Origin: a virus
IMG/VR virus record: IMGVR_UViG_3300021961_000019
Reading direction: 5' to 3' (one strand)
DNA length: 64,000 bases
The number at the start of each line of letters is the position of its first letter. Position 1 is the first letter of the stretch. The translations under genes and the position numbers were made by a program. The notes beneath the pieces are model-generated. The model was not told the DNA's origin, did no database searches, and worked only from the letters and a program-made list of their open reading frames with translations. Of the stretch, positions 55-55,259 are shown piece by piece.

Positions 55-130
55 TGGTGCTCCTTGAGGGAATTGAACCCACCTTAGGCGAATTATGAGT
101 TCGCTGCATTCACCAGATTGCTAAAGGAGC
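55..130 (-). tRNA. tRNA with CAT anticodon, probably Ile2 (lysidine type); CCA encoded
   Basis: Full cloverleaf: GCGAA CTCATAA TTCGC, acceptor GCTCCTT/AAGGAGC, A73, CCA; Ile2 versus Met identity is inferred. Confidence 0.85.
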
Positions 131-133
131 AAA

Positions 134-205
134 TGGGACTGCGGAGAATTGAACTCCGTTCACACCGTTATAAGCAGTGGGCCTTAACCAATAGGCGACA
201 GTCCC
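134..205 (-). tRNA. trnI: tRNA-Ile(TAT)
   Basis: Cloverleaf with CACTG CTTATAA CGGTG, A73. Confidence 0.85.
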
Positions 206-216
206 AAGAAAAACAC

Positions 217-384
217 TCAAGGTGCTTCGTCGTGCTCGCTATACATTCGTATGAGGTCATCATCTGCTGGACACATCACAACTTGATCGCTTCCATTTGT
301 GATGCCCAACCTTTCCCCACGCTCAACTCTATCTAACATTTCGTCCCAACGTTCAAGGAATTCATCAACCGAATAGATTTCCAT
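217..384 (-). CDS. 55-aa Phd/YefM antitoxin-like protein
   Basis: Read manually: MEIYSVDEFLERWDEMLDRVERGERLGITNGSDQVVMCPADD..., matching the Phd pattern L..VE.GE.v.IT. Confidence 0.6.
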   Translation of the reverse strand: MEIYSVDEFLERWDEMLDRVERGERLGITNGSDQVVMCPADDDLIRMYSEHDEAP

Positions 385-426
385 AAGTTAGAGTTCAACC
401 TCAGTAAATTGTGGGATTTCTCCCAA

Positions 427-500
427 TCGGAATGGCAGGATTCGAACCTGCGACCCTCTGTTCCCAAAACAGATGCGCTACCAAACTGCGCTACACCCCG
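427..500 (-). tRNA. trnP: tRNA-Pro(TGG)
   Basis: Cloverleaf, TCTGT TTTGGGA ACAGA. Confidence 0.93.
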
Positions 501-508
501 GTGTTATT

Positions 509-537
509 ATCATAATGCTATTTACTCTTTTTGTCAA
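509..537 (-). promoter_or_regulatory. sigma70-type promoter upstream of tRNA-Pro
   Basis: TTGACA-17nt-TATGAT. Confidence 0.7.
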
Positions 538-766
538 CCTCCTTTTTTCTACGCTTCAGTTCTTGCTTAACTGCCTTTCCACCACTACGATCCACTACAA
601 GTTTTTGAATTTCCTTTTTGGTCGGTTTACGTGTTGGACCTTCATGCCTTTGAAGTGTATAGGTCTTAACACCATCAACTTCTTTGTAAGTTCCAGGAAC
701 TGCATGTGGGGGAGTTCCAGACTTTTTCCCTTCACAGATTTGATAGAATTCTCTATAAGTAAGCAT
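518..766 (-). CDS. 82-aa basic hypothetical protein with capsid-targeting-like N-terminus
   Basis: ATG start gives MLTYREFYQICEG; GATAAATA late box at 791-798. Confidence 0.7.
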   Translation of the reverse strand: MLTYREFYQICEGKKSGTPPHAVPGTYKEVDGVKTYTLQRHEGPTRKPTKKEIQKLVVDRSGGKAVKQELKRRKKEVDKKSK

Positions 767-777
767 CGTAGTTCCAA

Positions 778-939
778 TCACTTATGATTATATTTATCAA
801 ATGGAGCCCAGTGTTGCCAACCATACTTATGAATGGCCCAAATACCCATAATAGGAACAAAAACCAATAGAGCACTCATAATCCCTAGGGAAACTGGATT
901 TTGCATGACTGTCCTAACAATAAATTGAATAGTGTGCAT
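778..939 (-). CDS. 53-aa small membrane protein
   Basis: Read manually: MHTIQFIVRTVMQNPVSLGIMSALLVFVPIMGIWAIHKYGWQHWAPFDKYNHK; one hydrophobic segment. Confidence 0.6.
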   Translation of the reverse strand: MHTIQFIVRTVMQNPVSLGIMSALLVFVPIMGIWAIHKYGWQHWAPFDKYNHK

Positions 940-1005
940 GATCAGTAATCCATTTGTCTGATATTTACATCATAAACCCCCCAAAGGGAATGGGGGGTCG
1001 ATTTG

Positions 1006-1025
1006 GGACACTTTCTCAACTGTCC
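1006..1025. promoter_or_regulatory. Copy of GACASTT-N4-AASTGTC palindrome (others at 4461, 6901, 39508, 42455, 44298)
   Basis: GGACACTT-TCTC-AACTGTCC; about 30 nt upstream of TATGAT on the minus strand. Confidence 0.65.
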
Positions 1026-2119
1026 ACTCTACACATGTTGTCATGAATTTGATTCCGCTTCGGATTTTCCCGAACCTCATGTCCACCAAATTTATTTCGC
1101 ATACCATTCAATATGCGATTTGCAAAATCTCCTAATCTGCGACTCTCAAACCGCGCAAATAGCGCACTAGAAAGGACAGGAGCGGGAACCCCAAGGTCCA
1201 CAGCGGTAGAAACAGTCCAACGACCCTCACCACTATCGGAAACCCCTCCAGAGAATGATTCAAGTCCACTATCGCTGCGCAGAACAGAAGCGGTAAGGTC
1301 AAGTAACCAGCTGCCAACAACACTACCGCGACGCCAAAGCTCAGCCACCTCAGAAACATCAATATCGTATTGATAACTCTCCGGATCAAACATAGGAGCA
1401 ACTCCGGCATCACCCTCTTTGACATATTGTGACCCAAGATTCGCGTTATGCAGAATATTAAATCCTTCAGCATATGCTTGCATGATTCCATACTCAATTC
1501 CATTATGAACCATCTTCACAAAGTGCCCTGCGCCAGGACCACCACAATGTAACCACCCAAGTTCTGCAGAAGTTACGTCTGAGTCATAATTGGTGCGTTG
1601 TGCGGTATTGATGCTTGGGGCGAGCGCGTTGAAGATGGGGCTACAATAGGCGACTGCAGAATTTCTGCCTCCAACCATAAGACAGTATCCACGCTCCATA
1701 CCGTACACACCACCAGAAGTACCACAGTCAATATATTCGACGCCATACTGATCATGAATCCTTTCCGCTCGACGGCGGCTCTCCTTAAAATTGCTATTGC
1801 CATGATCAATAATAATATCTCCACGGCGACAAAATGGTAATAATTCATTAAGTGTTTCCTCCACAGTTTCTGCTGGAACCACCAGCATATAAACAGCACG
1901 TTCTTCACCTTGGAGAACATGTGAAAGGTTTTCAATGCTGGTGACTACACCACTAATTGCACCTTGCTCATACAAAGTAACTGCTGCAGCATAATTTCTG
2001 CGATATCCCCAAACATGAATCTGATCGTTTGTTTCTTGCAACAGTCGTCTGGAACGTTGAATAATTCTACGAGACATACCCTCGCCCAGGCGACCAAGAC
2101 CTATCATTCCAACACGCAT
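1016..2119 (-). CDS. gnd: 6-phosphogluconate dehydrogenase (decarboxylating), phage auxiliary metabolic gene
   Basis: GMIGLGRLG Rossmann motif, DCGTSGG, GHFVKMVHNGIEYG, MRNKFGGH. Confidence 0.95.
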   Translation of the reverse strand: MRVGMIGLGRLGEGMSRRIIQRSRRLLQETNDQIHVWGYRRNYAAAVTLYEQGAISGVVTSIENLSHVLQGEERAVYMLVVPAETVEETLNELLPFCRRGDIIIDHGNSNFKESRRRAERIHDQYGVEYIDCGTSGGVYGMERGYCLMVGGRNSAVAYCSPIFNALAPSINTAQRTNYDSDVTSAELGWLHCGGPGAGHFVKMVHNGIEYGIMQAYAEGFNILHNANLGSQYVKEGDAGVAPMFDPESYQYDIDVSEVAELWRRGSVVGSWLLDLTASVLRSDSGLESFSGGVSDSGEGRWTVSTAVDLGVPAPVLSSALFARFESRRLGDFANRILNGMRNKFGGHEVRENPKRNQIHDNMCRVDS

Positions 2120-2123
2120 AATA

Positions 2124-2399
2124 CTAGTCCTCCTCTTCTAATTCATCTTCATACGTGGATGGTTCTTCAAATAACTCTTCCATCTTCCGTTGCAAAATCA
2201 TCTTTTGCAGTGCTTTTAGATCGTCATCTTCCAGTTTCATCACAATCAATTCTTCTCCTGCTTTCACACCACGCATTTCTGGATGTATTTTATATTCTGG
2301 ACACTTAATATATCCATGAGTTTCTTTCATGACAATCATTCCATGAATGACCAAACTAAGGGCCACCAAGAATAATACTAGAAAGATTATGGGAATCAC
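2124..2399 (-). CDS. 91-aa membrane-anchored hypothetical protein (DUF2973-like)
   Basis: N-terminal TM segment, HPEM motif, acidic tail. Confidence 0.6.
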   Translation of the reverse strand: MIPIIFLVLFLVALSLVIHGMIVMKETHGYIKCPEYKIHPEMRGVKAGEELIVMKLEDDDLKALQKMILQRKMEELFEEPSTYEDELEEED

Positions 2400-2572
2400 A
2401 TTACGTTCCTCATGGCGTTTACAACAGTAATTAATCCATGGGTATAAAATGCAAGAACAGTTGCTCCAAGCACAGAACTAATCAATGTTGCAGTTCTGTT
2501 ATGCTTAGCCATCGCCTGTTTGATTGATTCATCAATCATTCTTTGAGTTTCTTCACGATCACTTTCAGACAT
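2396..2572 (-). CDS. 58-aa small membrane protein
   Basis: Read manually: MSESDREETQRMIDESIKQAMAKHNRTATLISSVLGATVLAFYTHGLITVVNAMRNVM. Confidence 0.6.
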   Translation of the reverse strand: MSESDREETQRMIDESIKQAMAKHNRTATLISSVLGATVLAFYTHGLITVVNAMRNVM

Positions 2573-2584
2573 AACAATATATAT

Positions 2585-2734
2585 TTAAAAGAATTTTTTT
2601 GGAAGGTCTTCCATTGGGTCCTTACCAGATCTCAGGATTGCACAAGCTCTTGAATAATACATGTTGTTTGTATTTCCAGAGGCTTCCATAGCTTCCTTGA
2701 TTTTTTTCCAGTTCTCTAGATTATGTGCATCCAT
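2585..2734 (-). CDS. 49-aa hypothetical protein
   Basis: Read manually: MDAHNLENWKKIKEAMEASGNTNNMYYSRACAILRSGKDPMEDLPKKFF. Confidence 0.6.
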   Translation of the reverse strand: MDAHNLENWKKIKEAMEASGNTNNMYYSRACAILRSGKDPMEDLPKKFF

Positions 2735-2758
2735 TAGTTTTTTTATCTTTAAGGACAA

Positions 2759-2844
2759 CGGTGAGTCAGGGATTCGAACCCTGGGAGGCTACTAACCTCG
2801 TCGGTTTTCAAGACCGATGCCATCAACCACTCGACCAACTCACC
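2759..2844 (-). tRNA. trnS: tRNA-Ser(TGA)
   Basis: Cloverleaf with long variable arm, TCGGT CTTGAAA ACCGA, G73. Confidence 0.93.
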
Positions 2845-2869
2845 AAATTGCTTCTATTATAATAACATA

Positions 2870-3121
2870 TTAGCGAATCTCAAAGTCCAATTTCTTAACT
2901 TTTCTTTGTCTTCTAGACTCTTGATAGGCAAGATCTTCATTCGATAAGACTCCGCCACATTTAGTTTTTGTTGGTGGAGTGATTAAAACAACCTTATTCA
3001 AATCAATTGCTGTAATTTTATCATTACTAATTGTTGTCATATTATCACAACCACAAGATATAGGTTTTGATAGATGATTCTCTATCTCCCTATTACAAAT
3101 TTTACATCTAACTCTCATCAT
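2870..3121 (-). CDS. 83-aa Cys-motif (zinc-binding-like) hypothetical protein
   Basis: CxxC...CGC motif; ORF track. Confidence 0.7.
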   Translation of the reverse strand: MMRVRCKICNREIENHLSKPISCGCDNMTTISNDKITAIDLNKVVLITPPTKTKCGGVLSNEDLAYQESRRQRKVKKLDFEIR

Positions 3122-3191
3122 TCAACTCATCGATACAATATTTAGATACTTCAAAACCGCGTTCTGCGGCAAATGGAAATATTCAATTGTA

Positions 3192-3263
3192 TGGGCGATA
3201 CTGGATTCGAACCAGTGACTTACCACTTGTAAGGAGGCCACTCTACCGCTGAGTTAATCGCCC
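3192..3263 (-). tRNA. trnV: tRNA-Val(TAC)
   Basis: Cloverleaf, loop CTTACAA, A73. Confidence 0.9.
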
Positions 3264-3275
3264 ACGTCAAGTTAT

Positions 3276-3551
3276 TTATGAAAGAGAAATAGCAAGATCT
3301 AAGGCACGTTTTGCTGAAGGAGCGATTGGATATCCAAGATGAAGACCATCTTTATCATATTGATACTCCTCAGATCTGTATAATTGAAATCCAAAAAGAT
3401 CATCTGTGGGAGATCCAACATCCCATACTGATACTGGTCTTACAAAATAAATCCCAGCATTCGCAACAACACGCCACCCAATTTCCACAAATCCCAGACC
3501 ACGAAGAGCACATTCTAATTTTAACGAATACCCTGCATCGTGCAAATTCAT
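3276..3551 (-). CDS. 91-aa hypothetical protein
   Basis: ORF fills the gap between tRNA-Gly and tRNA-Val; protein-like composition. Confidence 0.65.
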   Translation of the reverse strand: MNLHDAGYSLKLECALRGLGFVEIGWRVVANAGIYFVRPVSVWDVGSPTDDLFGFQLYRSEEYQYDKDGLHLGYPIAPSAKRALDLAISLS

Positions 3552-3599
3552 AGGTTCGGTTTACCGTAACTATGAATTTATTTATTCCCCGGAAGGGGA

Positions 3600-3671
3600 A
3601 GCGGCTGATCGGATTCGAACCGACGACGTTCTGCTTGGAAGGCAGACATTCTACCACTGAATTACAACCGC
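3600..3671 (-). tRNA. trnG: tRNA-Gly(TCC)
   Basis: Cloverleaf, TCTGC CTTCCAA GCAGA, U73. Confidence 0.93.
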
Positions 3672-3675
3672 AAAG

Positions 3676-3752
3676 TGGGGGCGGGAGTTGGATTTGAACC
3701 AACGTTCTGCGGCTTATGAGACCGCCGTGATACCTGACTTCACTATCCCGCT
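3676..3752 (-). tRNA. trnM: tRNA-Met(CAT), initiator-like
   Basis: Cloverleaf with A1:C72 mismatch, loop CTCATAA, CCA end. Confidence 0.8.
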
Positions 3753-3755
3753 ATA

Positions 3756-3968
3756 TTTGGGTGGGTGGTGAGATTCTATCATACTCACAATCAGGAGGTC
3801 GCACTGATAGTAACGTTTCCTGACACTCTCGGACTCCTTGATAGTGGATTCGCATGTCTCTGGTCTCCCAGTCACATGGCGGGCATCACCCCTGTCCTAA
3901 TATACATTATCCCGTGCATGACCGCATAGGATTTTTCTGTCACACCCTTTGGAAATCCGTCGATCTCC
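3756..3968 (-). ncRNA. ~210-nt structured RNA, candidate manA-type motif
   Basis: Helices GGAGATC/GATTTCC, CATGT/ACATG, CTGG-GAGA-CCAG, TCAGGA/TCCTGA, GTGAG/CTCAC and long-range GGGTG/CACCC; lies directly 3' of a tRNA. The family call is from recall. Confidence 0.5.
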
Positions 3969-3970
3969 AA

Positions 3971-4041
3971 TGGAGAATAGGAGAATCGAACTCCTAATAA
4001 GTGCTTGCAAAGCACCCGTTATACCGTTTAACTAATTCCCC
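3971..4041 (-). tRNA. trnA: tRNA-Ala(TGC)
   Basis: Cloverleaf, G3:U70 pair, loop TTTGCAA. Confidence 0.93.
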
Positions 4042-4049
4042 ATGTTTTT

Positions 4050-4078
4050 ATTTTAAACGACAATCATGAGATTGTCAA
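4050..4078 (-). promoter_or_regulatory. sigma70-type promoter upstream of tRNA-Ala
   Basis: TTGACA-17nt-TAAAAT. Confidence 0.7.
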
Positions 4079-4150
4079 GCCCCCGACAAGACTTGAACTT
4101 GCGACATCGGCTTTACAAAAGCCGCGCTCTACCAGCTGAGCTACAAGGGC
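4078..4150 (-). tRNA. trnT: tRNA-Thr(TGT)
   Basis: Cloverleaf, CGGCT TTTGTAA AGCCG. Confidence 0.93.
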
Positions 4151-4205
4151 GAATGAGTCGGATATGATGATCCCGACTCTTATGGAAGAACCGAAGTCCA
4201 TCCAA

Positions 4206-4278
4206 CTGGGGTGGCAGGGATCGAACCTGCGACCTAGATGTTAACAGCATCCCGCTACTACCGCTGAGCTACACCCCA
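4206..4278 (-). tRNA. trnN: tRNA-Asn(GTT)
   Basis: Cloverleaf, loop CTGTTAA, G73. Confidence 0.93.
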
Positions 4279-4285
4279 TTAATTT

Positions 4286-4357
4286 AACGTGGATTGGGAA
4301 TCGAACCCAAACTCCATGTGTGTTGTCCACCCGTCCTGACCACTAGACTACCCACGT
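4286..4357 (-). ncRNA. tRNA-like element with degenerate anticodon arm
   Basis: Acceptor ACGTGGG/TCCACGT, D arm GTCTAGTGGTCAGGAC and T arm TTGGG-TTCGATT-CCCAA are intact; anticodon arm is only GTG/CAC with loop GACAACA. Confidence 0.7.
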
Positions 4358-4421
4358 ATGATGGGTTAAGTGTGATATGCCTCATAAGGACATAACAGGG
4401 ACTTAACCTCTGTCACTTTAT

Positions 4422-4450
4422 ATAGTAACAAACTTTTGATGGGTTGTCAA
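4422..4450 (-). promoter_or_regulatory. sigma70-type promoter for downstream tRNA block
   Basis: TTGACA-17nt-TACTAT, preceded by GGACAGTT-N4-AACTGG palindrome at 4461-4479. Confidence 0.75.
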
Positions 4451-4478
4451 CCCCCCATGTTCCAGTTTCCAAACTGTC

Positions 4479-4949
4479 CTATCCCATCACATATTCTATC
4501 CATTCAGTTACACCACTTTTCTGAACGTCCAGGTAGACCCTATTAAAAGGTGCTACAGGTTCTTTCTTCAAAGTCATGTTAGTTTCTGACAGAAGTTTGT
4601 TTCCCTTTTTCAAGTTACATTTAGTGCAACAGGCAACTAGGTTTTCCCATGTTTCCCGTCCACCTTTTGAACGTGGAATCACATGATCCAGTGTCAGATC
4701 CTTATCAGATCCACAATACTGGCACTCATGATCATCTCTCTTGTATATTAGAGCTCTTGTTGGATAAGATCCCCTACCCATATGAAAGGGAATATGTACA
4801 TAATTGACCAAACGTATTACTCGCTTGGTGATAAGCCTTGCCTTCTCTTTAAAGAGAAGAACTATAGCTCTCTTCCAATTAGTGAATTGCAATGGTTCAT
4901 ATGAACTGTTCAGAACCAATACTGTTGAATACGGTTCTACTAATTCCAT
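4479..4949 (-). CDS. HNH endonuclease
   Basis: RD..CQYCG...TLDHVIPRSKGG..TWENLVACC..CN..K motif; CTAAATA late-like box at 4971-4977. Confidence 0.92.
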   Translation of the reverse strand: MELVEPYSTVLVLNSSYEPLQFTNWKRAIVLLFKEKARLITKRVIRLVNYVHIPFHMGRGSYPTRALIYKRDDHECQYCGSDKDLTLDHVIPRSKGGRETWENLVACCTKCNLKKGNKLLSETNMTLKKEPVAPFNRVYLDVQKSGVTEWIEYVMG

Positions 4950-4980
4950 AGTCCTATCACACTGTAATGTTATTTAGAGG

Positions 4981-5053
4981 CGTCCCTTGAGAGATTCGAA
5001 CTCCCGACACATAGGTTCGTAGCCTACTGCTCTGTCCACTGAGCTAAAAGGAC
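4981..5053 (-). tRNA. trnR: tRNA-Arg(ACG)
   Basis: Cloverleaf, loop CTACGAA. Confidence 0.92.
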
Positions 5054-5054
5054 T

Positions 5055-5129
5055 TGGCGAAGGGCCAGAGACTTGAACTCTGAACTTTGGTTTTGGAGAC
5101 CAAGATGTTACCAATTACACCAACCCAAC
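5055..5129 (-). tRNA. trnW: tRNA-Trp(CCA)
   Basis: TTGGT CTCCAAA ACCAA; G73-CCA; two U-U mismatches in acceptor stem. Confidence 0.85.
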
Positions 5130-5130
5130 G

Positions 5131-5206
5131 TGGTATCCGTGAGAGGACTCGAACCTCCAACAAATAGATCCTTAGTCTATTGCCTCTTCCATTGGGCTAC
5201 ACGGAT
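5131..5206 (-). tRNA. trnL: tRNA-Leu(AAG) with short variable loop
   Basis: ATAGA CTAAGGA TCTAT, A73-CCA, D arm similar to the Leu(TAA) gene. Confidence 0.82.
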
Positions 5207-5207
5207 T

Positions 5208-5281
5208 TGGTTCCAGAACTAGGACTCGAACCTAGATAAACGCCTTCAAAGGGCGGTGTCCTGCCATTAGACGATTCTGGA
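5208..5281 (-). tRNA. trnQ: tRNA-Gln(TTG)
   Basis: Loop CTTTGAA, U1-A72, CCA encoded. Confidence 0.9.
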
Positions 5282-5282
5282 T

Positions 5283-5360
5283 TGGAGTTCAGGGTGGGAT
5301 TCGAACCCACGGTAAAGAAGTTTTGCAGACTTCCGCATTCGACCACTCTGCCACCTGAAC
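5283..5360 (-). tRNA. trnC: tRNA-Cys(GCA)
   Basis: GAAGT CTGCAAA ACTTC, U73-CCA. Confidence 0.9.
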
Positions 5361-5392
5361 ATTGAACTATCTGGACTTTCCGGATAGTTGAG

Positions 5393-5464
5393 AGCCCTTA
5401 GTGAGAATCAAACTCACGACCGCATTCTTACCAAGAATGTGTTCTATCACTGAACTATAAGGGC
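5393..5464 (-). tRNA. trnT: tRNA-Thr(GGT), atypical D and T loops
   Basis: CATTC TTGGTAA GAATG; D loop lacks GG; T loop reads TTTGATT. Confidence 0.75.
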
Positions 5465-5466
5465 GG

Positions 5467-5540
5467 GGTGTAGGACGGGACTTGAACCCGCATAAACCAG
5501 ATTCACAATCTGGCGCATTGGCCAATTATGCTACCTACAC
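5467..5540 (-). tRNA. trnH: tRNA-His(GTG)
   Basis: CCAGA TTGTGAA TCTGG, C73; the -1 base is T, not G. Confidence 0.9.
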
Positions 5541-5541
5541 A

Positions 5542-5615
5542 TGGCAGTAGATGGATTTGAACCACCGACCATAGGAATATGAGACCCGTGCTCTACCAAA
5601 CTGAGCTATACTGCC
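5542..5615 (-). tRNA. trnM: tRNA-Met(CAT), probably elongator
   Basis: Cloverleaf with G1-C72, A73, weak anticodon stem, loop CTCATAT. Confidence 0.82.
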
Positions 5616-5617
5616 AA

Positions 5618-5708
5618 CGGAAGTGGTTGGATTCGAACCAACGGTGCCTATTACTAGACACGGAATCTTAGCAGGATTCTGCGATAAGCCTGACTCTGCC
5701 ACACTTCC
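5618..5708 (-). tRNA. trnS: tRNA-Ser(GCT)
   Basis: Loop CTGCTAA, long variable arm, G73. Confidence 0.92.
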
Positions 5709-5762
5709 TCAATGTTGCCTTGAATTATCCTAAAGTTGTTTTGGGTTGCTTCAAGGCAACAA

Positions 5763-5834
5763 TGGAACCGACAAGATTTGAACTTGTGACCGCTCGGTTA
5801 TCAGCCGAGTGCTCTACCGCTGAGCTACGGTTCC
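5763..5834 (-). tRNA. trnI: tRNA-Ile(GAT)
   Basis: CTCGG CTGATAA CCGAG, A73. Confidence 0.93.
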
Positions 5835-5837
5835 AAG

Positions 5838-5911
5838 AGGGAACAGTCGGACTTGAACCGACAACACCATGATCTTCAGTCATGTGCTCTACCAATTGGA
5901 GCTATGTTCCC
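5838..5911 (-). tRNA. trnF: tRNA-Phe(GAA)
   Basis: CATGA CTGAAGA TCATG. Confidence 0.92.
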
Positions 5912-5913
5912 AA

Positions 5914-5985
5914 TAGTCCTAACGGGATTCGAACCCGTGTTCTCACCTTGAAAGGGTGATGACCTAACCGCTAGTCGATAGGACC
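5914..5985 (-). tRNA. trnE: tRNA-Glu(TTC)
   Basis: Loop CTTTCAA, Glu-type D arm. Confidence 0.92.
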
Positions 5986-5988
5986 AGG

Positions 5989-6060
5989 CGACCCATAGGG
6001 GATTCGAACCCCTGATACCTCTTAGACAGAGAGGCGTGATCACCACTTCACTAATGGGCC
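5989..6060 (-). tRNA. trnD: tRNA-Asp(GTC)
   Basis: CCTCT CTGTCTA AGAGG, G73. Confidence 0.92.
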
Positions 6061-6135
6061 TGGAGCGGACTACGGGATTTGAACCCGTGACATCAACCTT
6101 GGCAAGGTTGCGTTCTACCACTGAACTAAATCCGC
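6061..6135 (-). tRNA. trnG: tRNA-Gly(GCC)
   Basis: CAACC TTGCCAA GGTTG, U73-CCA. Confidence 0.93.
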
Positions 6136-6139
6136 AAGG

Positions 6140-6230
6140 TGGGAGAGGAGGGAATTGAACCCCCGATGGTTCCGATGTAACGGTTTTACAGACCGCAGCC
6201 ACACATATTGCCAACAGTAGCCACTCTCCC
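6140..6230 (-). tRNA. trnY: tRNA-Tyr(GTA) with enlarged D arm
   Basis: GCGGT CTGTAAA ACCGT, long variable region, A73, 24-nt D arm. Confidence 0.85.
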
Positions 6231-6268
6231 GAACAGTTTATGTTTAACGACCGAACTGCGGCGGTGCA

Positions 6269-6343
6269 GGGGGCATCTGGGATTCGAACCCAGGACTAAC
6301 CGATTAAGAGTCGGATACTCTGACCTGACTGAGTTAATGCCCC
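6269..6343 (-). tRNA. trnK: tRNA-Lys(CTT)
   Basis: Loop CTCTTAA, acceptor GGGGCAT/ATGCCCC. Confidence 0.88.
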
Positions 6344-6346
6344 TTA

Positions 6347-6419
6347 TGGGTCTGGTGGGACTCGAACCCACGATCCACCGGTTAAAAGCCGGGTGCGCTC
6401 GCCGCTTAGCTACAGACCC
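6347..6419 (-). tRNA. trnK: tRNA-Lys(TTT)
   Basis: Loop CTTTTAA, A73. Confidence 0.92.
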
Positions 6420-6467
6420 AATAAAGGTTTAAATTTTCAAGGTTCAATCAAAAACTATCACAGGCAA

Positions 6468-6502
6468 CAAAAAAGGGGAGGAAACCTTAGTTTCTCTCCC
6501 CT
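6468..6502 (-). terminator. Intrinsic terminator after 35-aa micro-ORF
   Basis: AGGGGAG...CTCCCCT stem followed by a T run. Confidence 0.7.
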
Positions 6503-6526
6503 GTTCTTGCTTTTATGGATTACATG

Positions 6527-6634
6527 TTACATGTGTTTATCCATACCCGCAAACAGGGGAGCTCCCTCAATATGCTGCCAGGTGCGGCCGCAATCGAGAT
6601 TGCTAAACTTAATTGTGAGCATTGGATAAGACAT
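6527..6634 (-). CDS. 35-aa microprotein with its own late promoter
   Basis: MSYPMLTIKFSNLDCGRTWQHIEGAPLFAGMDKHM; TATAAATA at 6655-6662; terminator downstream. Confidence 0.55.
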   Translation of the reverse strand: MSYPMLTIKFSNLDCGRTWQHIEGAPLFAGMDKHM

Positions 6635-6719
6635 TGTTTTCGACCTAAGTGTTTTATTTATAGGGTTTTAATTTTTGCGTTACAAAAATTAACAGGAGCA
6701 ATCAATCAAGATTGCTAAG

Positions 6720-6793
6720 CACCCCAGGTAGGATTCGAACCTACGACTCACGCTTTAGAAGAGCGTTACTCTATTCCACTGAGTTACTGAGGC
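6720..6793 (-). tRNA. trnR: tRNA-Arg(TCT)
   Basis: ACGCT CTTCTAA AGCGT. Confidence 0.93.
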
Positions 6794-17691: not shown

Positions 17692-17964
17692 CTATTTATC
17701 CAAATTAGACTCGTATTTTTTAGTCTTTGGATTCCATTTCCTAACTTCACCCTTTCTCAAGGGTGGAGTGTCATCATGCCTCGTTTTCCAATGTTTACCA
17801 AATTTCATTCTCATCTTTCTTTCCAAATTCTCTCTCTCCGACTCATCATCTTTTTCACGTTCCCTAGAGGACAAATATCCTGCAAAAGGTTCACTAGTTT
17901 CATACCTCATATTTCTTCGGAAATAATCAATTACGAAGTCAATTTTCTTGTCGAAATTGTCCAT
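17692..17964 (-). CDS. 90-aa hypothetical protein
   Basis: ORF coupled to the 929-aa gene; PLRKGEVRKW motif. Confidence 0.65.
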   Translation of the reverse strand: MDNFDKKIDFVIDYFRRNMRYETSEPFAGYLSSREREKDDESERENLERKMRMKFGKHWKTRHDDTPPLRKGEVRKWNPKTKKYESNLDK

Positions 17965-20767: not shown

Positions 20768-21973
20768 CTATTTCTTCTTATACTTATTTATGAAATTTTT
20801 AATACTCTTGGTTTGAGTCATACGCATCAAATATTTTAGAAGAGAATCAGTTCCAACCAATCTTTTATCAGATGAGACTCCAGATTGATCGGTCCATTCA
20901 ACAACATCACGAATCCAAGGTTTGAATAGAATATTATCCTCAGTCACACAAATCAAATAATTTGCACCTCTGCGAATGATCTTACCAACAAATCCAGTAT
21001 TAAGGTTCTCAACAACATCCCCAACATTAAAAATATTTCCCCTGATATATTCATCTCTCAATCCATTGGAATCATATTTTGGAGCAATTTCCCACAAACT
21101 ATACGACTCAGAAACCTTCATACTCTTTCTAAGAGTATTATAAAGTTGTTTTGTAGTTTCGTCATCCAAAGTGGAAGGAACTCCCTTTCGGAAAGTTGCA
21201 AAGTCTCCCTCTGCTGCTGCCTTCCTCAATTTAGATGCTGACATACCACTCACATCATCAGCATCCGGATCACGTTCTCCAGCAGAAACTACCTGAATAT
21301 CTTTGAAGTCATACAACTTACCATTATATTCTGTAGACAATTTCTCAAACTCTGATTGGCGATCACTTCCCACAACAATATTAACTGAAGAATAACCGTC
21401 AGCATGTGCTTGCTTGAGAACATCAAAAATGGTCTTTGACTTCACATCGTTCACAATTCTCTCACCATGCTTTGGATACATTTTACGCATTACTGCAATT
21501 TTAGTATCCGGATCTAATGGATTTTTCTTTGAATCACTAGATCTAGACGGATAGATTTTATAGTCCCCCTTACCAGCAACGGTTGCAACTCTATCCAACA
21601 ACTTTTCATGTCCGGTAGTTGGGGGGTTAAATCTACCGAAAGCAATAGTGAGTGTTCCCTTATCTTCAACCTCTTCTTCACCACCCTCAGGTTGCTGAGA
21701 TTGTGCCTGAGGTTGCGGTGCTTGTGGGGCAGATTGTTGAACTTGAGTAGCGGCGATTTGTTGATTCGCAGATGTTCTTTCCTGAGGAGGATCCTGTCCA
21801 GGTCTCTGATTTTTATTATAAAACTTTAATTTACCACCCTCAGTTTTTGCTACAAACTCTCCGTCTTTATCATACCACCCACCATGACCATCTCCAGTCA
21901 GTCCAAGCCGTCTTGCTTGCATAACTGCCTGTGATTTGCCTGCTTCGGAAAGAAATCGGGAAAAACTTTTCAT
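20768..21973 (-). CDS. HIGH-superfamily nucleotidyltransferase (cytidylyltransferase-like)
   Basis: GRFNPPTTGH and MSASKLR motifs; N-terminus MKSFSRFLSE; two TATAAATA boxes upstream. Confidence 0.88.
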   Translation of the reverse strand: MKSFSRFLSEAGKSQAVMQARRLGLTGDGHGGWYDKDGEFVAKTEGGKLKFYNKNQRPGQDPPQERTSANQQIAATQVQQSAPQAPQPQAQSQQPEGGEEEVEDKGTLTIAFGRFNPPTTGHEKLLDRVATVAGKGDYKIYPSRSSDSKKNPLDPDTKIAVMRKMYPKHGERIVNDVKSKTIFDVLKQAHADGYSSVNIVVGSDRQSEFEKLSTEYNGKLYDFKDIQVVSAGERDPDADDVSGMSASKLRKAAAEGDFATFRKGVPSTLDDETTKQLYNTLRKSMKVSESYSLWEIAPKYDSNGLRDEYIRGNIFNVGDVVENLNTGFVGKIIRRGANYLICVTEDNILFKPWIRDVVEWTDQSGVSSDKRLVGTDSLLKYLMRMTQTKSIKNFINKYKKK

Positions 21974-22003
21974 ATTTATAATTCTTGCATTTTTATTTAT
22001 ATT

Positions 22004-23197
22004 TCAATCAGATGACCAATTTTTATCTGCGGTAAAGTTTGCTCGCGAAAATTCAAGTCTATCAACAAGTTTTAAGGCAGATCCAGATTTGATTGCAACA
22101 AATCCCTCTGGCGCAGTAACTTTGTATCCATCACCAGTTCTCAGGAATGTTCCAAAGTCCTTCACCATTTCAAGTTTACGAATTACAATATTTTTTGCCT
22201 TCTGCAAATTAATATAAGAAGCGACTGTAAAATATACAGATCTGCTATTCTTGGTCAAGAAGGTTAATCCATCTGCCTTAATCTTTGCATATTTATCTCT
22301 AGCAGCAGGAGTTTTTTTACTACCAATCTCCTTATCCAAAAGTGAAGAATAGTAAGTCTTGAATCCTTCAGAAACTTTTTTCACATTAGTGATAGGGTTG
22401 CCAGACCGAATGTATGTATTGAAATATTGCTTAAACAAAGTGGATAGTAAGAATTTACCATCACCAGTCTCACCCAAAATATCTAAAAATGCAGATGCTT
22501 GCTTCAAAGATCCAGTCGCCATATTTACGGCAGACTTATATTTTTGATGCTCAGTTGGTGAAAAATTAGCAGCGCCGGAAGCATCACTAAATGATGCTGT
22601 TGCAGCATAAACATCAGGACAATCTTGGAATTTAGAAATGTCCACACCAAAGGATGCATTCATACTTTCCAAAGATGATCCACTATATTCAGTATGAAAA
22701 ACAATTCCAACTTTTGCCCTTGAGATTTTAGATCCAAGTTTCGAATCAACCGGGACAGTATATACAATAGTATTTGGTTGGAAACTATGAACTCGTTCTC
22801 CAGCAATTGTCTTAATACTCACATCATCCGTGAAAAGAAGGTCTCCCTGAATTACATTTGTAATTCCAAGTTTGGGAAGATGCTCTAGACATGCCTTTAG
22901 TTTAGATGCTAGTTGCCCAGAATAATTTTGATCTATATCGCCGGAAGTAAACATCAACTTCGGATTTGTTTTTGCAAAAACAGATTTTGTTCCAACAAAA
23001 AAGCATCCTGTGACAGGTTCAATTCCACAGATTACGGCAGGTGCTCCATCCCACTTTGTTGTGATGCGGATAGAAGATCTTGGTTCCGTGAGCATAGTTC
23101 CAAGCTCATTTAAAAATGTAATTGCATTTTTTCCGCCAGCAGAACCATGATTTAAAATATCATCTTCAAGGTGTTCAAGGTGAGTGTTTTTTGCCAT
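22004..23197 (-). CDS. 397-aa conserved phage protein (DUF6267-like) with ligase-like motifs
   Basis: MAKNTHLEHLED start; KWDG, QGD, EGFV and LKLVDR motifs. Confidence 0.85.
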   Translation of the reverse strand: MAKNTHLEHLEDDILNHGSAGGKNAITFLNELGTMLTEPRSSIRITTKWDGAPAVICGIEPVTGCFFVGTKSVFAKTNPKLMFTSGDIDQNYSGQLASKLKACLEHLPKLGITNVIQGDLLFTDDVSIKTIAGERVHSFQPNTIVYTVPVDSKLGSKISRAKVGIVFHTEYSGSSLESMNASFGVDISKFQDCPDVYAATASFSDASGAANFSPTEHQKYKSAVNMATGSLKQASAFLDILGETGDGKFLLSTLFKQYFNTYIRSGNPITNVKKVSEGFKTYYSSLLDKEIGSKKTPAARDKYAKIKADGLTFLTKNSRSVYFTVASYINLQKAKNIVIRKLEMVKDFGTFLRTGDGYKVTAPEGFVAIKSGSALKLVDRLEFSRANFTADKNWSSD

Positions 23198-24501
23198 CAG
23201 TTAATAAGTCTCCTAATATTTGCAAACTGTCCTTTCAATAGGTGCTTTAGTTCCGGTGCGATTGTGGCAAAGAATTGTGGTTGAGAATGGAAATCCCCCT
23301 TGTATCGAAGTTCCACACAAAGAAGTCTAAATTCTCCCTTGAAAACATCAAAGAAAACCTTGGCAGCATCTGCCTTTTCCGTCTTGTCTGTATCCAGTTT
23401 AATATGGGCAGACTCCTTTGACAGGGCTGCTAGGACACATTGAACACTGTCTATCCCGATGGCATCGCCAGATCCCATACTGATATTTCCTTTTTTACAT
23501 TCACCAACACCAGTGACCAACACAAATTCAAATTTGTTCTGAACTAGATCCTCCAGTGTATCCTGCAACCTACTCTTAAGAACAAGATTGATTAGAGAAT
23601 CTGCGAATAAATCCGCATGTTCATCCATAATGTCAAGGAAACCTTTATATAAAGGATTGACTGTATTACCAATGCTCTGCAACTTCTTATTCACATAGTC
23701 TCGCATATCATTATGCGCTTTGGACTCGGAAGCAACTAATGATGGATCATCGCTAATTGCACGAACATCCTTAATATTAATCAGGAACACATATTCAGTT
23801 TTATTTGCCTTTCTTCTTGGAACCTTCGCATTCCACAATTGCTCATCAGTTGCAGTATTCCAATTATCCACACGATCAATCTTACCAATCAATTTTAATG
23901 GACCATCTTCCTTTGCTTCGCGGATCACACCTGCAAAGAATTTTTGTCTATGCGCCAACAATTCAGTCTTCACAGTATTAAACTTAGTGCCCTCCATCAG
24001 GGTGTCAAACGCCTTGTTAATAATTGTTGGATCTTGTGCTGTCGATTTTGGTTTCTTCTTCAGCGAAATGCCAACATAATGATCAGTTCCGTATCTAAAA
24101 ATAACATCGGATGAATTATAATCTGCCATTCCAAAAGCATTAATCTTAAACTTCTGAACCTCTGTTGGCCAACGAGTTCCAGTTAAAAATACTTTGGTTG
24201 GACTTGCTGCTGAAATAGTATCATAAGCATCTGTCTTTAGATATGAGCGAATTGCTTTCATCGCTGACATACCAACAAGTAGATCAGTATATACTTGATC
24301 AGTATTGCTGCCATCGAGTCTCATCTTCTTGAGGAAATCGTTCTTAACGTTTCCAATTCCCTCAACATTAGTTCCTTCAACATTTGCAATCACATCATTA
24401 AGTAATGCTTGCAGTTTGTTTGTGTCTCTGGCAGCTGCGTTTATTTCGGTGTCACTAATGAAGGCAACTCCAGCCAACATTCCTTCAGATGGTTCAGCCA
24501 T
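23197..24501 (-). CDS. 434-aa protein with putative PD-(D/E)XK nuclease motif
   Basis: SSDVIF...GISLKK; its stop overlaps the start of the next gene; AATAAATA at 24523-24530. Confidence 0.8.
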   Translation of the reverse strand: MAEPSEGMLAGVAFISDTEINAAARDTNKLQALLNDVIANVEGTNVEGIGNVKNDFLKKMRLDGSNTDQVYTDLLVGMSAMKAIRSYLKTDAYDTISAASPTKVFLTGTRWPTEVQKFKINAFGMADYNSSDVIFRYGTDHYVGISLKKKPKSTAQDPTIINKAFDTLMEGTKFNTVKTELLAHRQKFFAGVIREAKEDGPLKLIGKIDRVDNWNTATDEQLWNAKVPRRKANKTEYVFLINIKDVRAISDDPSLVASESKAHNDMRDYVNKKLQSIGNTVNPLYKGFLDIMDEHADLFADSLINLVLKSRLQDTLEDLVQNKFEFVLVTGVGECKKGNISMGSGDAIGIDSVQCVLAALSKESAHIKLDTDKTEKADAAKVFFDVFKGEFRLLCVELRYKGDFHSQPQFFATIAPELKHLLKGQFANIRRLIN

Positions 24502-24537
24502 TCTTACTATTGTGTTTTGTCCTATTTATTTAATCAT

Positions 24538-24560
24538 AAAAAAACCCCCCGGAGGGGGGG
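24538..24560 (-). terminator. Intrinsic terminator
   Basis: CCCCCC-TCC-GGGGGG followed by a T run. Confidence 0.65.
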
Positions 24561-24565
24561 GTGAT

Positions 24566-25280: not shown

Positions 25281-26669
25281 CTAGAATTTAAAAGAGTCAA
25301 ATTTTTTGTTTTGGAATTTTTCCTCAGTCCTATCATTATAGTCAATATCATGTCCGCTGTCAACTAAATCATTCTGAGCGGTCTGCTCAACATCATACAG
25401 TCTCATCTTTGCTCTGTCAATACCAACCACAAACCTCTTGTAGACTGTCGGATCATTATAACGATTCTTAAGTTGCTTTACAAGGATTTGTCCGAGTTGC
25501 TCCAGATCTTCAGTAGAAATAAGGGCAAACATAAGATCAGCAGTAGCAGGGAGGCCAAAGGATTCACTAGTATCAGTAAGTTCGACATCGTTGCTACTAT
25601 AACCAGAACGAGTGGTCTGCGTGGCAGAAACGATAGGGACGTTTGCTTCAACAGCCAATCCTCTAAGCTCTTCAGCAATTGCTTTGATATAGCTATATGA
25701 ATTGACAGAAAGGTTCGTCCTATACCTAGAGGAAGAACATATATTAAGGTAATCAACGAAAATAATATCAGGACAAAATGACTTTTTAAGATGTAAATCA
25801 TTTAACAACGACCTAAAGTGCCCAGAATGTGCAGAAGCAGTTGGATATTCCTTAATTATAAGAGTACCTTGCGTCTTCTTTGAAAGTTTATTGACTTTTG
25901 TTTCAAACATATCTTTTGGCAGTTTCACAATATCCTGAATCGGAACGTTCAAAAGATTTGCATCGATTCTTTCTGCGATTTTTTCTTCAGACATCTCCAT
26001 CGTAATATACAAAACATTTTTGCCTTGAAGCAAAACTGCTGCTGCCATATGACACATGAATAAAGATTTGCCCACACCAGTTCCTGCGAGGGCAATATTT
26101 AAAGTCTTTCTTGGAAGACCACCTTTAGTAATCTTGTTGAAGTAATCCAGATCAAATGGAATACGATCTTCCTTTCTATGATAACTCTCATATCTTGCTT
26201 CAAAGTCATTCAAATAATCATGACCGATATGATTGTCAAAAGAAACTGCTAATGCATCTTGTAAGATGGAAGGAATGGAATCCCTAGATCTTTTTTCATC
26301 CTTGCCATCAGCGATTGAAATTGCATCAATCAACGACAAGTAAATAGCACGATCTCTACACCACTTTTCGGTAGTGTTTACCAACCAAGAATATTCAGAA
26401 ACACTCTCATCCAAAGATTGAATGAGACCGCGAATATCTTTGAATTCAGAATCATTAATATCCTTCCTATTCTCAACTTCAATAGAAAGGACCTCCTTCG
26501 TTGCAGTTTTATTATACTCCTCAATAAAGGATCGTATTTCTTCAAATACAATTCTCTGATTCTTATCCTCAAAATATTCCGCCTTAATAAAGGGTATTAC
26601 CTTTCGGCAATACTCCTCATTGTATACTAAGTTCTTAAGGATTAGAAGTTCAATTGTTTCCATTATCAA
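25281..26669 (-). CDS. gp41: Replicative DNA helicase (T4 gp41-like)
   Basis: AGTGVGKS Walker A, VDYLNI, SATQTTRSG, DLTDTSESFGLPATAD-like motif. Confidence 0.96.
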   Translation of the reverse strand: MIMETIELLILKNLVYNEEYCRKVIPFIKAEYFEDKNQRIVFEEIRSFIEEYNKTATKEVLSIEVENRKDINDSEFKDIRGLIQSLDESVSEYSWLVNTTEKWCRDRAIYLSLIDAISIADGKDEKRSRDSIPSILQDALAVSFDNHIGHDYLNDFEARYESYHRKEDRIPFDLDYFNKITKGGLPRKTLNIALAGTGVGKSLFMCHMAAAVLLQGKNVLYITMEMSEEKIAERIDANLLNVPIQDIVKLPKDMFETKVNKLSKKTQGTLIIKEYPTASAHSGHFRSLLNDLHLKKSFCPDIIFVDYLNICSSSRYRTNLSVNSYSYIKAIAEELRGLAVEANVPIVSATQTTRSGYSSNDVELTDTSESFGLPATADLMFALISTEDLEQLGQILVKQLKNRYNDPTVYKRFVVGIDRAKMRLYDVEQTAQNDLVDSGHDIDYNDRTEEKFQNKKFDSFKF

Positions 26670-31176: not shown

Positions 31177-31887
31177 TTACCTGAGAGACAAGCTGTTGAC
31201 CTTAAGATTTCTTAAATGCTCACTCATCTTATCAAGATATCCGCGATTACGCAACTCCTTGAACACCAGATTTTCTACAGCAAATTCACCTCCCTTCTGA
31301 ATCGAAGATGATCTCATGTTTCTAAACTTTTCCTTAAGTTTCATGAATGCATCACGATCATCTGCACGATTATTAATCAAGAAATCAATCTTTTCCATAT
31401 AATGCTTAACCTTACTAGCAATACACGGATCTGAAAGATTGACTTGTTTATGAACTGGTTTGCGGATCCACTTACTTTTTTGTAGGGAAAAAATTCCCTG
31501 ATCTGATGGGAAAGGTTCTCTAATGTCTTGAGCATACAATTCTACATCATGTCCATATATTTTAATGTCATGAGTTAATGCCCACAGTTGCTTCTTATCT
31601 TTCAAGTAGTCATCAATTAAATCTGGGCAATTAGCAATCTCTCTCTTGTCAACCAGTAGATGCAAATCCAAATCAGAATATTTTGTATAGTTGTAATTTG
31701 CATTTCCACCAACCAGAGTAATATCCTTAATTGCAGAATTTGGAATATTAGCAAATTCTGCCCACTCACCAGCGATACGCAAAAGTGCTTCTCTAACATC
31801 AACTTTAATATTATCATCATCCCAGACTTTAGGATTTAGTCGGTCATGATAGCGTAAGGTTAATTGTAATTCTTTAAATGTTTTCAT
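31177..31887 (-). CDS. Pol-beta superfamily nucleotidyltransferase
   Basis: GGNANYNYTKYSDLDLH (G[GS]x9DxD) plus distal HDVE; N-terminus MKTFKE. Confidence 0.85.
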   Translation of the reverse strand: MKTFKELQLTLRYHDRLNPKVWDDDNIKVDVREALLRIAGEWAEFANIPNSAIKDITLVGGNANYNYTKYSDLDLHLLVDKREIANCPDLIDDYLKDKKQLWALTHDIKIYGHDVELYAQDIREPFPSDQGIFSLQKSKWIRKPVHKQVNLSDPCIASKVKHYMEKIDFLINNRADDRDAFMKLKEKFRNMRSSSIQKGGEFAVENLVFKELRNRGYLDKMSEHLRNLKVNSLSLR

Positions 31888-39685: not shown

Positions 39686-40201
39686 TCAATCTTTCTCAAA
39701 GGTAAATGTCTTATTCTTAACTTTGGTGTCAAATTCACCAGTTCTCCCCGGTCTCATTTTTCCCTGAGGAACTCTCTTACCCTTACCTGGCCATGCTCCT
39801 TTTTTGGTGCCAACAAGATCACCAGATCCGCTGGGTTTCTTCTGAACCAGGACAGCATCTTGCCCATGCTTTGCGCCCAGCTTTTCAACTGCCTTCTTAA
39901 ACTTCCTCTTACCCTTCTTTCCAGAGCTAATGATGTGCGACTTTTCACCAACCTTTCTTCCTTCTGGGGATCCATCATCCTCAGTATATCTTCCCTGTGC
40001 CTTTGTTGGTCCTGGGAGTCCAGCGCCCTTAATGTCCTTCTCCATTTGACGAGAACGTGCTTTATTCTCTTTCTTGGATTTGTCTCCACGTTCAGCAGAA
40101 ACAATTGCCAATCCACCTTTCTTTGATTTCTGGACAACTCTGGAAAGTCCCCCCTCTTGGAGGGACCTACACTCAGTCATGAACTCCCTAAAAGTCTTCA
40201 T
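39686..40201 (-). CDS. 171-aa basic late protein with capsid-targeting-like N-terminus
   Basis: Start MKTFREFMTE; GATAAATA at 40230-40237. Confidence 0.78.
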   Translation of the reverse strand: MKTFREFMTECRSLQEGGLSRVVQKSKKGGLAIVSAERGDKSKKENKARSRQMEKDIKGAGLPGPTKAQGRYTEDDGSPEGRKVGEKSHIISSGKKGKRKFKKAVEKLGAKHGQDAVLVQKKPSGSGDLVGTKKGAWPGKGKRVPQGKMRPGRTGEFDTKVKNKTFTFEKD

Positions 40202-55258: not shown

Positions 55259-55259
55259 C

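Follow-up and report, generated by a model that had tools for sequence, protein, structure and literature searches.

Cyanomyoviruses are among the most abundant viruses of the ocean. Homologs of a transferase resembling nicotinamide mononucleotide adenylyltransferase (NMNAT) have been detected by mass spectrometry in the virions of S-SM1, S-SZBM1 and S-CREM2, and have also been reported in those of S-SCSM1 and S-CBWM1 (PMC9602691), a presence which the authors of the proteome papers left unexplained. In phage T4, ten residues of the internal protein IPIII constitute a capsid-targeting sequence, with positions 4 and 7 serving mainly targeting and positions 8 and 10 processing (PMC9026906). Here we analyse a locus encoding such a transferase in IMG/VR record IMGVR_UViG_3300021961_000019, a stretch of 64,000 nucleotides (hereafter, the window) whose source is a T4-like marine cyanomyovirus. 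The locus comprises three consecutive genes, coding for a nuclease-like protein (P0001), a protein of the family DUF6267 (P0002) and a HIGH-family transferase (P0003), which had been singled out in a prediction made from the nucleotide sequence (hereafter, the original prediction). On balance, we lean towards reading it as a late operon, headed by a variable nuclease-like gene, whose adenylyltransferase is packed into the capsid and whose ligase-type enzyme works in the same pathway. The three genes are the following.

23197-24501, minus strand: P0001, 434 amino acids (aa), putative HinP1I/MspI-like PD-(D/E)XK-fold nuclease-like protein, in a variable slot
22004-23197, minus strand: P0002, 397 aa, DUF6267, predicted to be a divergent nucleotidyltransferase of the ligase (covalent lysine) type, residues 214-342 forming a helical insert
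20768-21973, minus strand: P0003, 401 aa, consisting of a leader, a conserved N-terminal block, a Q/P-rich linker, a HIGH-family NMNAT-like transferase and a small C-terminal domain

P0003 starts with MKSFSRFLSE followed by an alanine, and 38 distinct N-termini of its homologs show M-K-[ST]-F-x-x-F-[LI]-x-E-[AS] as a near-invariant pattern (F4, F7, L/I8, E10). Direct comparison with T4 IPII and IPIII, both of which start with MKTYQEFIAE and then A, showed that the conserved positions 4, 7, 8 and 10 are those which are functional in T4. The capsid-targeting-like leader noticed on the 401-aa protein in the original prediction is thus borne out by the homologs and by the T4 proteins. Two features of the window bear on its use.

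21944-21973, minus strand: codons of the ten-residue capsid-targeting-like leader MKSFSRFLSE, with cleavage predicted before A11
54608-55294, minus strand: gp21-type prohead protease (Pfam Peptidase_S77, E 1.2e-33), presumed to be the leader-processing enzyme

The gp22 scaffold, gp23 and gp20 are also encoded in the window. Since the leader matches the functional positions of T4, a gp21-type protease is present and homologs occur in virions, it is highly likely that P0003 is targeted to the capsid through its leader, for delivery to the next host, and the leader probably explains why relatives of P0003 are found in virions.

As for the enzyme itself, residues 110-251 of P0003 match Pfam CTP_transf_like (28 bits against a cut-off of 21), and the protein matches phrog_395 (E 2.3e-109); PHROGs labels it cytidyltransferase. 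Its catalytic core shows at least 77% identity over the best 120 matches and contains the blocks FGRFNPPTxGH, SRSxDxKKNPL and GMSASKxRK; G121, H122, S245, S247 and R250, which belong to the (H/T)xGH and ISxxxxR signatures, are invariant in the homolog alignment.

21608-21625, minus strand: codons of P117-P-T-T-G-H122, the (H/T)xGH nucleotide-binding signature within the invariant FGRFNPPTxGH block

The nearest solved sequence, a distant one, is that of M. jannaschii MJ0951, a UPF0348 protein (E 6e-5, over the ISxxxxR region); a phmmer search of the PDB sequences returned nothing, and the ESM Atlas gave virus-specific CTP_transf_like clusters only. The reading of TTGH and SASKLR as marks of a HIGH transferase is therefore sustained by a family match above cut-off and by invariant signature residues, and membership of P0003 in the HIGH nucleotidyltransferase family is well supported by its sequence; the label NMNAT-like, given by motif as in the literature, is a reasonable one. 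Outside the core, a conserved block (GL..DGHGGW.D..GEFVAKT, residues 11-60) directly follows the leader, and a small C-terminal domain (residues 290-357, LWEIAPKYD...RRGxNxLICV) also matches PHROGs labelled for other proteins.

P0002 matches Pfam DUF6267 (PF19782) over its full length (E 1.8e-132). At E ≤ 0.001 this family comprises at least 2,551 representative clusters, and no mention of it was met in the literature searched. The nearest isolates, S-8S53 and S-CAM9, share ~61% protein identity across the 397-aa gene, and a megablast of the region revealed no near-identical DNA in the phage genome collection. In an alignment of 101 diverse homologs (35-62% identity), only 14 residues are invariant, including K48, D50, G51, D119, Y146, H168, E364, G365 and K376.

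23045-23056, minus strand: codons of K48-W-D-G, putative motif I with the nucleotidyl-accepting lysine (K48, D50 and G51 invariant in the 101 homologs)

The AlphaFold model of P0002 (predicted local distance difference test [pLDDT] 94.4; predicted template modelling score [pTM] 0.91) consists of a beta-rich core (residues 44-200 and 349-377) broken by a helical bundle (214-342). In this model, D119 lies on strand 115-122, Y146 on 144-149, H168 on 163-172, E364/G365 on 365-370 and K376 on 373-377, which would place motifs III, IIIa, IV and V in the canonical order. An exhaustive structural search with VIA listed covalent nucleotidyltransferases (ligase/capping) in all of its top 18 rows: the Naegleria nick-sealing RNA ligase (5cot/6vtf) reached Z 8.6, T. 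brucei REL1 (1xdn) 8.2, T4 Rnl2 (1s68/2hvq) 7.9, Trl1 7.5, T4 Rnl1 6.8, DNA ligases 5.6-6.4 and capping enzymes about 5. A second look with VIA gave 41 consecutive top rows from the ligase/capping superfamily, with the Naegleria RNA ligase at Z 8.8 and the adenylation domains of NAD-dependent ligases at only 4.4-4.7. No OB-fold domain follows the nucleotidyltransferase domain, the model stopping 20 residues past motif V, and the helical insert 214-342 is the sole extra module. It is the top list devoid of other folds, together with the invariant residues on motifs I, III, IV and V in order, that carries the assignment, and we are confident that DUF6267 has a ligase-type fold, as far as a predicted model can tell. 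The set of ligase-like motifs I, III, IIIa, IV and V proposed for this protein has accordingly held, its key residues being invariant in the 101 homologs and the modelled fold having a ligase-type nucleotidyltransferase core by VIA. It is well supported by the model that DUF6267 represents a new and very divergent branch of the superfamily, nearest in shape to the ATP-dependent RNA ligases and outside every named ligase family.

DUF6267 and the transferase are found fused, in both orders, in other phages (S-PM2d138 is a DUF6267-transferase fusion); one PHROG profile spans the two, and DUF6267 directly adjoins the transferase in many isolates. Adjacency is seen in only 9 of the 80 closest transferase loci, and all three of the near-complete genomes examined that lack it (3/3) have a shorter DUF6267 elsewhere. 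This short form (~315-320 aa), from which part of the helical insert is absent, lies away from the transferase in S-SM2 and in two large viral contigs (L085-L089); in S-SM2 it comes just after a helicase gene. Both genes also occur in Stenotrophomonas phage DLP6 and in a metagenomic contig (L093), in both of which DUF6267 bears the leader. In DLP6, a soil T4-like phage (L101, 2895-9036), the genes run from a slot protein with SDFHF...WMSHK through the leader-bearing DUF6267 and a small acidic open reading frame (ORF) to a 722-aa cytidyltransferase, after which comes an ExoVII-large-subunit-like gene. The order P0001-like, DUF6267, transferase recurs in S-MbCM6 (L097, 4566-7906), where DUF6267 is annotated as two fragments of 63 and 203 aa, both assigned to T4-GC_71, followed by two separate cytidyltransferase genes; these fragments may reflect decay, or mis-annotation of the short form. 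DUF6267 and the transferase would act in one pathway, as suggested by the occurrence of fusions of both orders elsewhere among phages. The idea that the three genes co-occur as a system thus survived the neighbourhood survey for the DUF6267-transferase pair, by fusions and co-occurrence, and failed for the nuclease-like gene, which occupies a hypervariable slot.

The locus forms part of a larger block of genes and signals on the same strand, listed here in the direction of transcription.

25335-25363, minus strand: sigma-70 promoter with a perfect 12/12 consensus, upstream of mazG, driving mazG and a 97-aa ORF
24544-24562, minus strand: intrinsic terminator, a G+C-rich hairpin with a T run, ending the upstream mazG unit
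24523-24530, minus strand: AATAAATA late-promoter-like box of the cyanomyovirus NATAAATA type
21994-22001, minus strand: TATAAATA late box, 20 nt before the P0003 ATG
21973-21980, minus strand: second TATAAATA box, overlapping the P0003 start codon
17964-20753, minus strand: P0243, 929 aa, highly charged low-complexity protein, the constant partner downstream of the transferase
17692-17964, minus strand: 90-aa ORF with a TGATG overlap with P0243
17425-17448, minus strand: intrinsic terminator closing the ~7-kb late unit, the next strong one on this strand after 24544-24562

The NATAAATA box is the accepted late-promoter motif of cyanomyoviruses (PMC2984593). The AATAAATA box stands ~25 nt 5' of the P0001 ATG, directly after the terminator at 24544-24562, and the 30-nt spacer ahead of P0003 holds two perfect TATAAATA boxes. 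Both types of box are strand-biased, as all nine copies of AATAAATA in the window are on the coding strand (9/9; 4.8 expected over both strands), and so are all nine of TATAAATA (9/9; 3.2 expected). Among related loci, 35 of 63 distinct ones have a NATAAATA box within 60 nt of the transferase start, as against 2.7% of random windows, and its modal spacing of 20 nt is that found at P0003. P0001 and P0002 overlap by TGATG, as do P0243 and the 90-aa ORF. Because the late boxes are strand-biased and their 20-nt spacing is conserved, the assignment of this region to a late module is well founded, and the sequence points to a ~7-kb late transcription unit bounded by the two terminators. Each of the earlier statements on gene arrangement therefore stands: all three ORFs follow one another behind a late box at 24523-24530, the first two are coupled at 23197 through the TGATG overlap, and late expression is backed by the terminator, the late boxes and their recurrence in related loci. 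The three-gene stretch is flanked by the genes for gp43, UvsX, gp41 and MazG on one side and those for gp61 and NrdA on the other, and likewise in S-CAM9, S-PM2, S-SM2 and S-SZBM1. The perfect sigma-70 promoter of mazG contrasts with the late boxes of the neighbouring operon.

Other products of the window may share the particle with P0003. P0243 always follows the transferase in related loci, where it varies in length and modules; with S-SZBM1_139 it shares only a short Cys-containing module, CWxGY...KGGKxVPxC. Products of genes in this position have been detected in the virions of S-SZBM1 and S-CREM2, and P0243 would probably be delivered together with P0003. We had considered the virion protein S-SZBM1_139 as a DUF6267 homolog, and dropped it when gene sizes identified it as the gene downstream of the transferase. 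A leaderless DUF6267 riding into the capsid with the transferase likewise found no support in the S-SZBM1 and S-CREM2 proteome tables, so that in this phage packaging is supported only for P0003 and probably for P0243. The following gene is a further candidate.

39686-40201, minus strand: S-adenosylmethionine (S-AdoMet, SAM) lyase, 171 aa (PF23780, E 4.7e-12), with the leader MKTFREFMTE and a GATAAATA box upstream

The S-AdoMet lyase family is known for anti-restriction activity. A SAM hydrolase has been reported in S-CREM2 virions, and the leader makes the lyase of the window a candidate second capsid-delivered enzyme. A 236-aa ORF (31177-31887, minus strand) had no Pfam family at E 0.001 and no match to the leader pattern.

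P0001 belongs to no Pfam family. Its model (pLDDT 85.9) was matched by VIA to HinP1I with Z 7.5-8.0 (at best 8.0, over 220 of the 247 enzyme residues) and to MspI with Z 6.7, the next family after HinP1I in the second look being at 4.2; the rest of the wide list consists mostly of PD-(D/E)XK proteins (Hjc, SwaI, Cas4-like, AddAB and Dna2 nuclease domains). Foldseek gave no significant match to the PDB. S131, D132, G144, S146, L147 and K148 are invariant in 37 homologs, and the model puts D132 and K148 on adjacent strands (133-137 and 141-150), forming an SD-x13-SLK hairpin with Ser146 as the middle residue.

24058-24108, minus strand: codons of D132-K148, the putative catalytic beta-hairpin SD-x13-SLK, invariant in the 37 homologs

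A comparable SD-x11-EAK is present in HhaI, a structural relative of HinP1I (PMC7026639). On the strength of the model, P0001 is likely to have a nuclease fold; the PD-(D/E)XK-like call of the original prediction is accordingly upheld as to fold (HinP1I, Z 8.0) and as to the conservation of its residues, and corrected as to spacing, which is SSD-x11-GISLK and not SSD-x10-GISLK. The slot upstream of the transferase is occupied by at least 15 families among the 80 closest loci, and that upstream of DUF6267 is variable as well. Four slot families, which make up 33 of 76 neighbours, have a core of the form [PS]xD...G-phi-SxK, the count among background ORFs being 1 of 311; by sequence these four look like fast-diverging relatives, and the others show no relation. 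We consequently gave up the notion that every slot family derives from one nuclease by divergence, as it holds only for these four clusters. In Pfam, ten representative slot proteins gave no significant match, the single hit being below cut-off. Because its slot is hypervariable, P0001 appears to be a swappable cargo gene and not an obligate partner of DUF6267 and the transferase; it would be a monomeric restriction-enzyme-like nuclease or nickase, encoded in the fast-evolving cargo slot with which the operon begins.

A number of results weigh against a capsid-loaded adenylyltransferase working with a ligase-type enzyme and a nuclease-like protein. For P0002, Foldseek found no significant match in the PDB, and the VIA Z of 8-9 is moderate. 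At the level of sequence, no ligase was matched in Pfam or NCBIfam; phmmer against PDB sequences returned nothing, the DUF6267 profile picked up only low-complexity helices and no ligase among them, and hhalign of that profile with the single T4 Rnl2 and gp30 sequences gave a probability of ≤2%, that is, no signal. For P0003, the likeness to the archaeal NMN adenylyltransferase MJ0541 is weak (E 0.26, with GRFxPxxxGH and NP[FL] in common), and the NaMNAT (nicotinic acid mononucleotide adenylyltransferase) equivalog TIGR00482 gives 15.6 bits, its cut-off being 112. As regards packaging, the proteome papers caution that abundant late proteins may co-purify with particles; P0002 of the window has no leader, starting exactly at the conserved KN.HLEHLED, and the gene upstream of the transferase is not among the virion proteins listed for S-SZBM1 and S-CREM2. 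PD-(D/E)XK enzymes carry an acidic residue, Gln or Asn at the middle position, and P0001, with Ser there, may be inactive or use another third ligand.

How such an operon would work can be sketched as follows. P0003 would enter the prohead core, lose its leader through cleavage after Glu10 by the gp21-type protease and be brought into the next host with the DNA, where it would act early in infection as an adenylyltransferase, probably converting NMN to NAD+. DUF6267 would form a Lys48-nucleoside monophosphate intermediate, most likely with AMP, and the bound nucleotide would pass to a 5' phosphate, leading to sealing or adenylylation of a nucleic-acid end, with the 130-residue helical insert as a substrate clamp. 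Taken further, DUF6267 and the NMNAT-like transferase would constitute a two-enzyme machine, capsid-packed and injected in many phages, which, at the start of infection, would act on damaged nucleic-acid ends, sealing or re-adenylylating them, or would restore an adenylated cofactor; we put this forward tentatively, as a possibility and not as the probable case. The leader stands directly before KN.HLEHLED in ~40 of the 101 DUF6267 family representatives.

It is rather unlikely, in our view, that DUF6267 is instead the long-missing nick-sealing ligase of cyanomyoviruses, working on DNA or RNA-DNA junctions in replication, recombination or packaging, with the transferase as an accessory or unrelated protein. 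According to reviews, cyanomyoviruses have no homologues of g30, undetected distant ones being left possible (PMC2984593), and the ligase families PF01068, PF09414 and PF01653 were absent from S-CAM9, S-PM2, S-SM2, S-SZBM1 and a 236-kb contig, while control genomes were positive. DUF6267, which is the conserved cyanophage gene cluster T4-GC71 and whose best structural matches are nick-sealing ligases, has its gene within the gp43-uvsX-gp41 ... gp61-nrdA cluster. Yet that gene is insulated by a terminator and a late box and has no good sigma-70 promoter directly upstream, and DLP6 has a gp30-type ligase in addition to a full-length DUF6267. The capsid-targeting-like leader on ~40% of the DUF6267 representatives, the repeated fusion to a virion-associated transferase and the lack of an OB or other known DNA-binding domain also speak against a replicative role.

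The original prediction had combined all three proteins into one cut-and-repair or NAD-restoring counter-defence system, perhaps tied to replacement of the tRNA pool, an array of which the window does contain.

55-6793, minus strand: array of 29 tRNA genes, for most of the amino acids

By sequence, the three genes would be co-transcribed and the first two translationally coupled; S-MbCM6 has the same gene order with a nuclease-like gene 25% identical, DLP6 has a D...SxK-containing protein upstream of DUF6267, and the anti-restriction-type SAM lyase of the window shares the leader. Against this, most of the at least 15 slot families among 80 loci are not detectably related to P0001, P0001-like genes also sit directly beside the transferase where DUF6267 is lacking, no PADLOC model was matched by any of the proteins, the operon shows no partner of Nampt or Nudix type, and nothing ties the module to tRNA, so that a link to the tRNA array is speculation. 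Of that integrated system, then, the DUF6267-transferase link is retained and the nuclease-like gene as a partner is not, and we regard the system as a whole as doubtful.

Finally, public labels (cytidyltransferase, glycerol-3-phosphate cytidylyltransferase, phosphopantetheine adenylyltransferase [PPAT]), a match in Pfam only to the general CTP_transf_like family and a best PDB sequence match to an entry devoid of assigned function (MJ0951) would suit a small-molecule cytidylyl- or adenylyltransferase (TagD- or PPAT-like) acting as an auxiliary metabolic gene, with DUF6267 adenylating a protein or small molecule, but virion packaging and the leader suit a delivered enzyme that acts early more than they suit bulk metabolism, and the structural neighbours of DUF6267 are without exception enzymes of nucleic-acid ends, which makes this very improbable.

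We thus keep to the reading of a late operon with a capsid-loaded adenylyltransferase and a ligase-type enzyme of one pathway. Parts of it are already published, namely the occurrence of the transferase in virions, the lack of g30 in cyanomyoviruses and the late-promoter motif. To our knowledge, four elements are new: (i) the placement of DUF6267 in the ligase superfamily, (ii) its link to the transferase by fusion, (iii) the capsid-targeting leader as an explanation for packaging and (iv) the hypervariable nuclease-like slot. DUF6267, to which no function had been assigned, is present in hundreds of sequenced cyanomyoviruses, and its placement is relevant to a long-standing puzzle, the failure to find any ligase in them. 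The leader offers a mechanistic explanation for the repeated observation by proteomics of NMNAT-like proteins within the particles of cyanophages, as well as a simple sequence rule for predicting phage enzymes delivered to the host, including the SAM lyase of the window. The nuclease-like slot resembles an arms-race locus, comparable to the internal-protein region of T4. Should the two-enzyme virion reading be true, it would mean an undescribed kind of repair or counter-defence activity, delivered by the virion, in phages among which DUF6267 is widespread, marine T4-like ones and some from soil.

Set beside the known systems, P0003 resembles the T4 internal proteins IPI, IPII and IPIII, and Alt, in its leader (M-K-[ST]-[YF]-x-x-F-[IL]-x-E, then A, with the conserved positions 4, 7, 8 and 10), in its late promoter, in the gp21-type protease of its genome and in adjoining a hypervariable locus. 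It differs from the internal proteins in that the cargo is a 44-kDa nucleotidyltransferase and not a small basic protein, that the leader is followed by another conserved block of the N-terminal part (GDGHGGW...GEFVAKT) and by a linker, and that its cleavage and ejection are predicted. With the NMN and NaMN adenylyltransferases (NadM-type MJ0541; NadD, TIGR00482) it has in common GRFxPxxxGH, xNP[FL], IS-x-x-x-x-R and the HIGH superfamily, while it stays far below their family cut-offs and possesses extra N- and C-terminal domains.

DUF6267 shares with the RNA ligases Rnl5, Rnl2 and REL1 the predicted nucleotidyltransferase fold (167-193 residues aligned, root-mean-square deviation 3.6-4.0) and motifs I (KxDG), III, IV (EG) and V (K), in the same order and on beta-strands. 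In contrast to these ligases, it shows no detectable sequence similarity to them, has a 130-residue helical bundle between motifs IIIa and IV, and carries as motif V a single Lys followed by LVDR instead of KxK, with motifs IV and V 12 residues apart; it lacks both the C-terminal domain of Rnl2 and the N-terminal domain of NgrRnl, and is often fused to the HIGH transferase or preceded by a capsid-targeting-like leader. P0001, for its part, is like the monomeric type II restriction endonucleases HinP1I and MspI in its modelled whole-enzyme fold, and its SD-xN-?xK hairpin resembles the SD-x11-EAK of HhaI. Unlike these enzymes, it is only ~10% identical, twice the size, interrupted by a helical insert (165-320) and equipped with Ser146 in place of E/Q/N, and it is a phage-encoded, late-expressed protein of a hypervariable slot with no methyltransferase partner.

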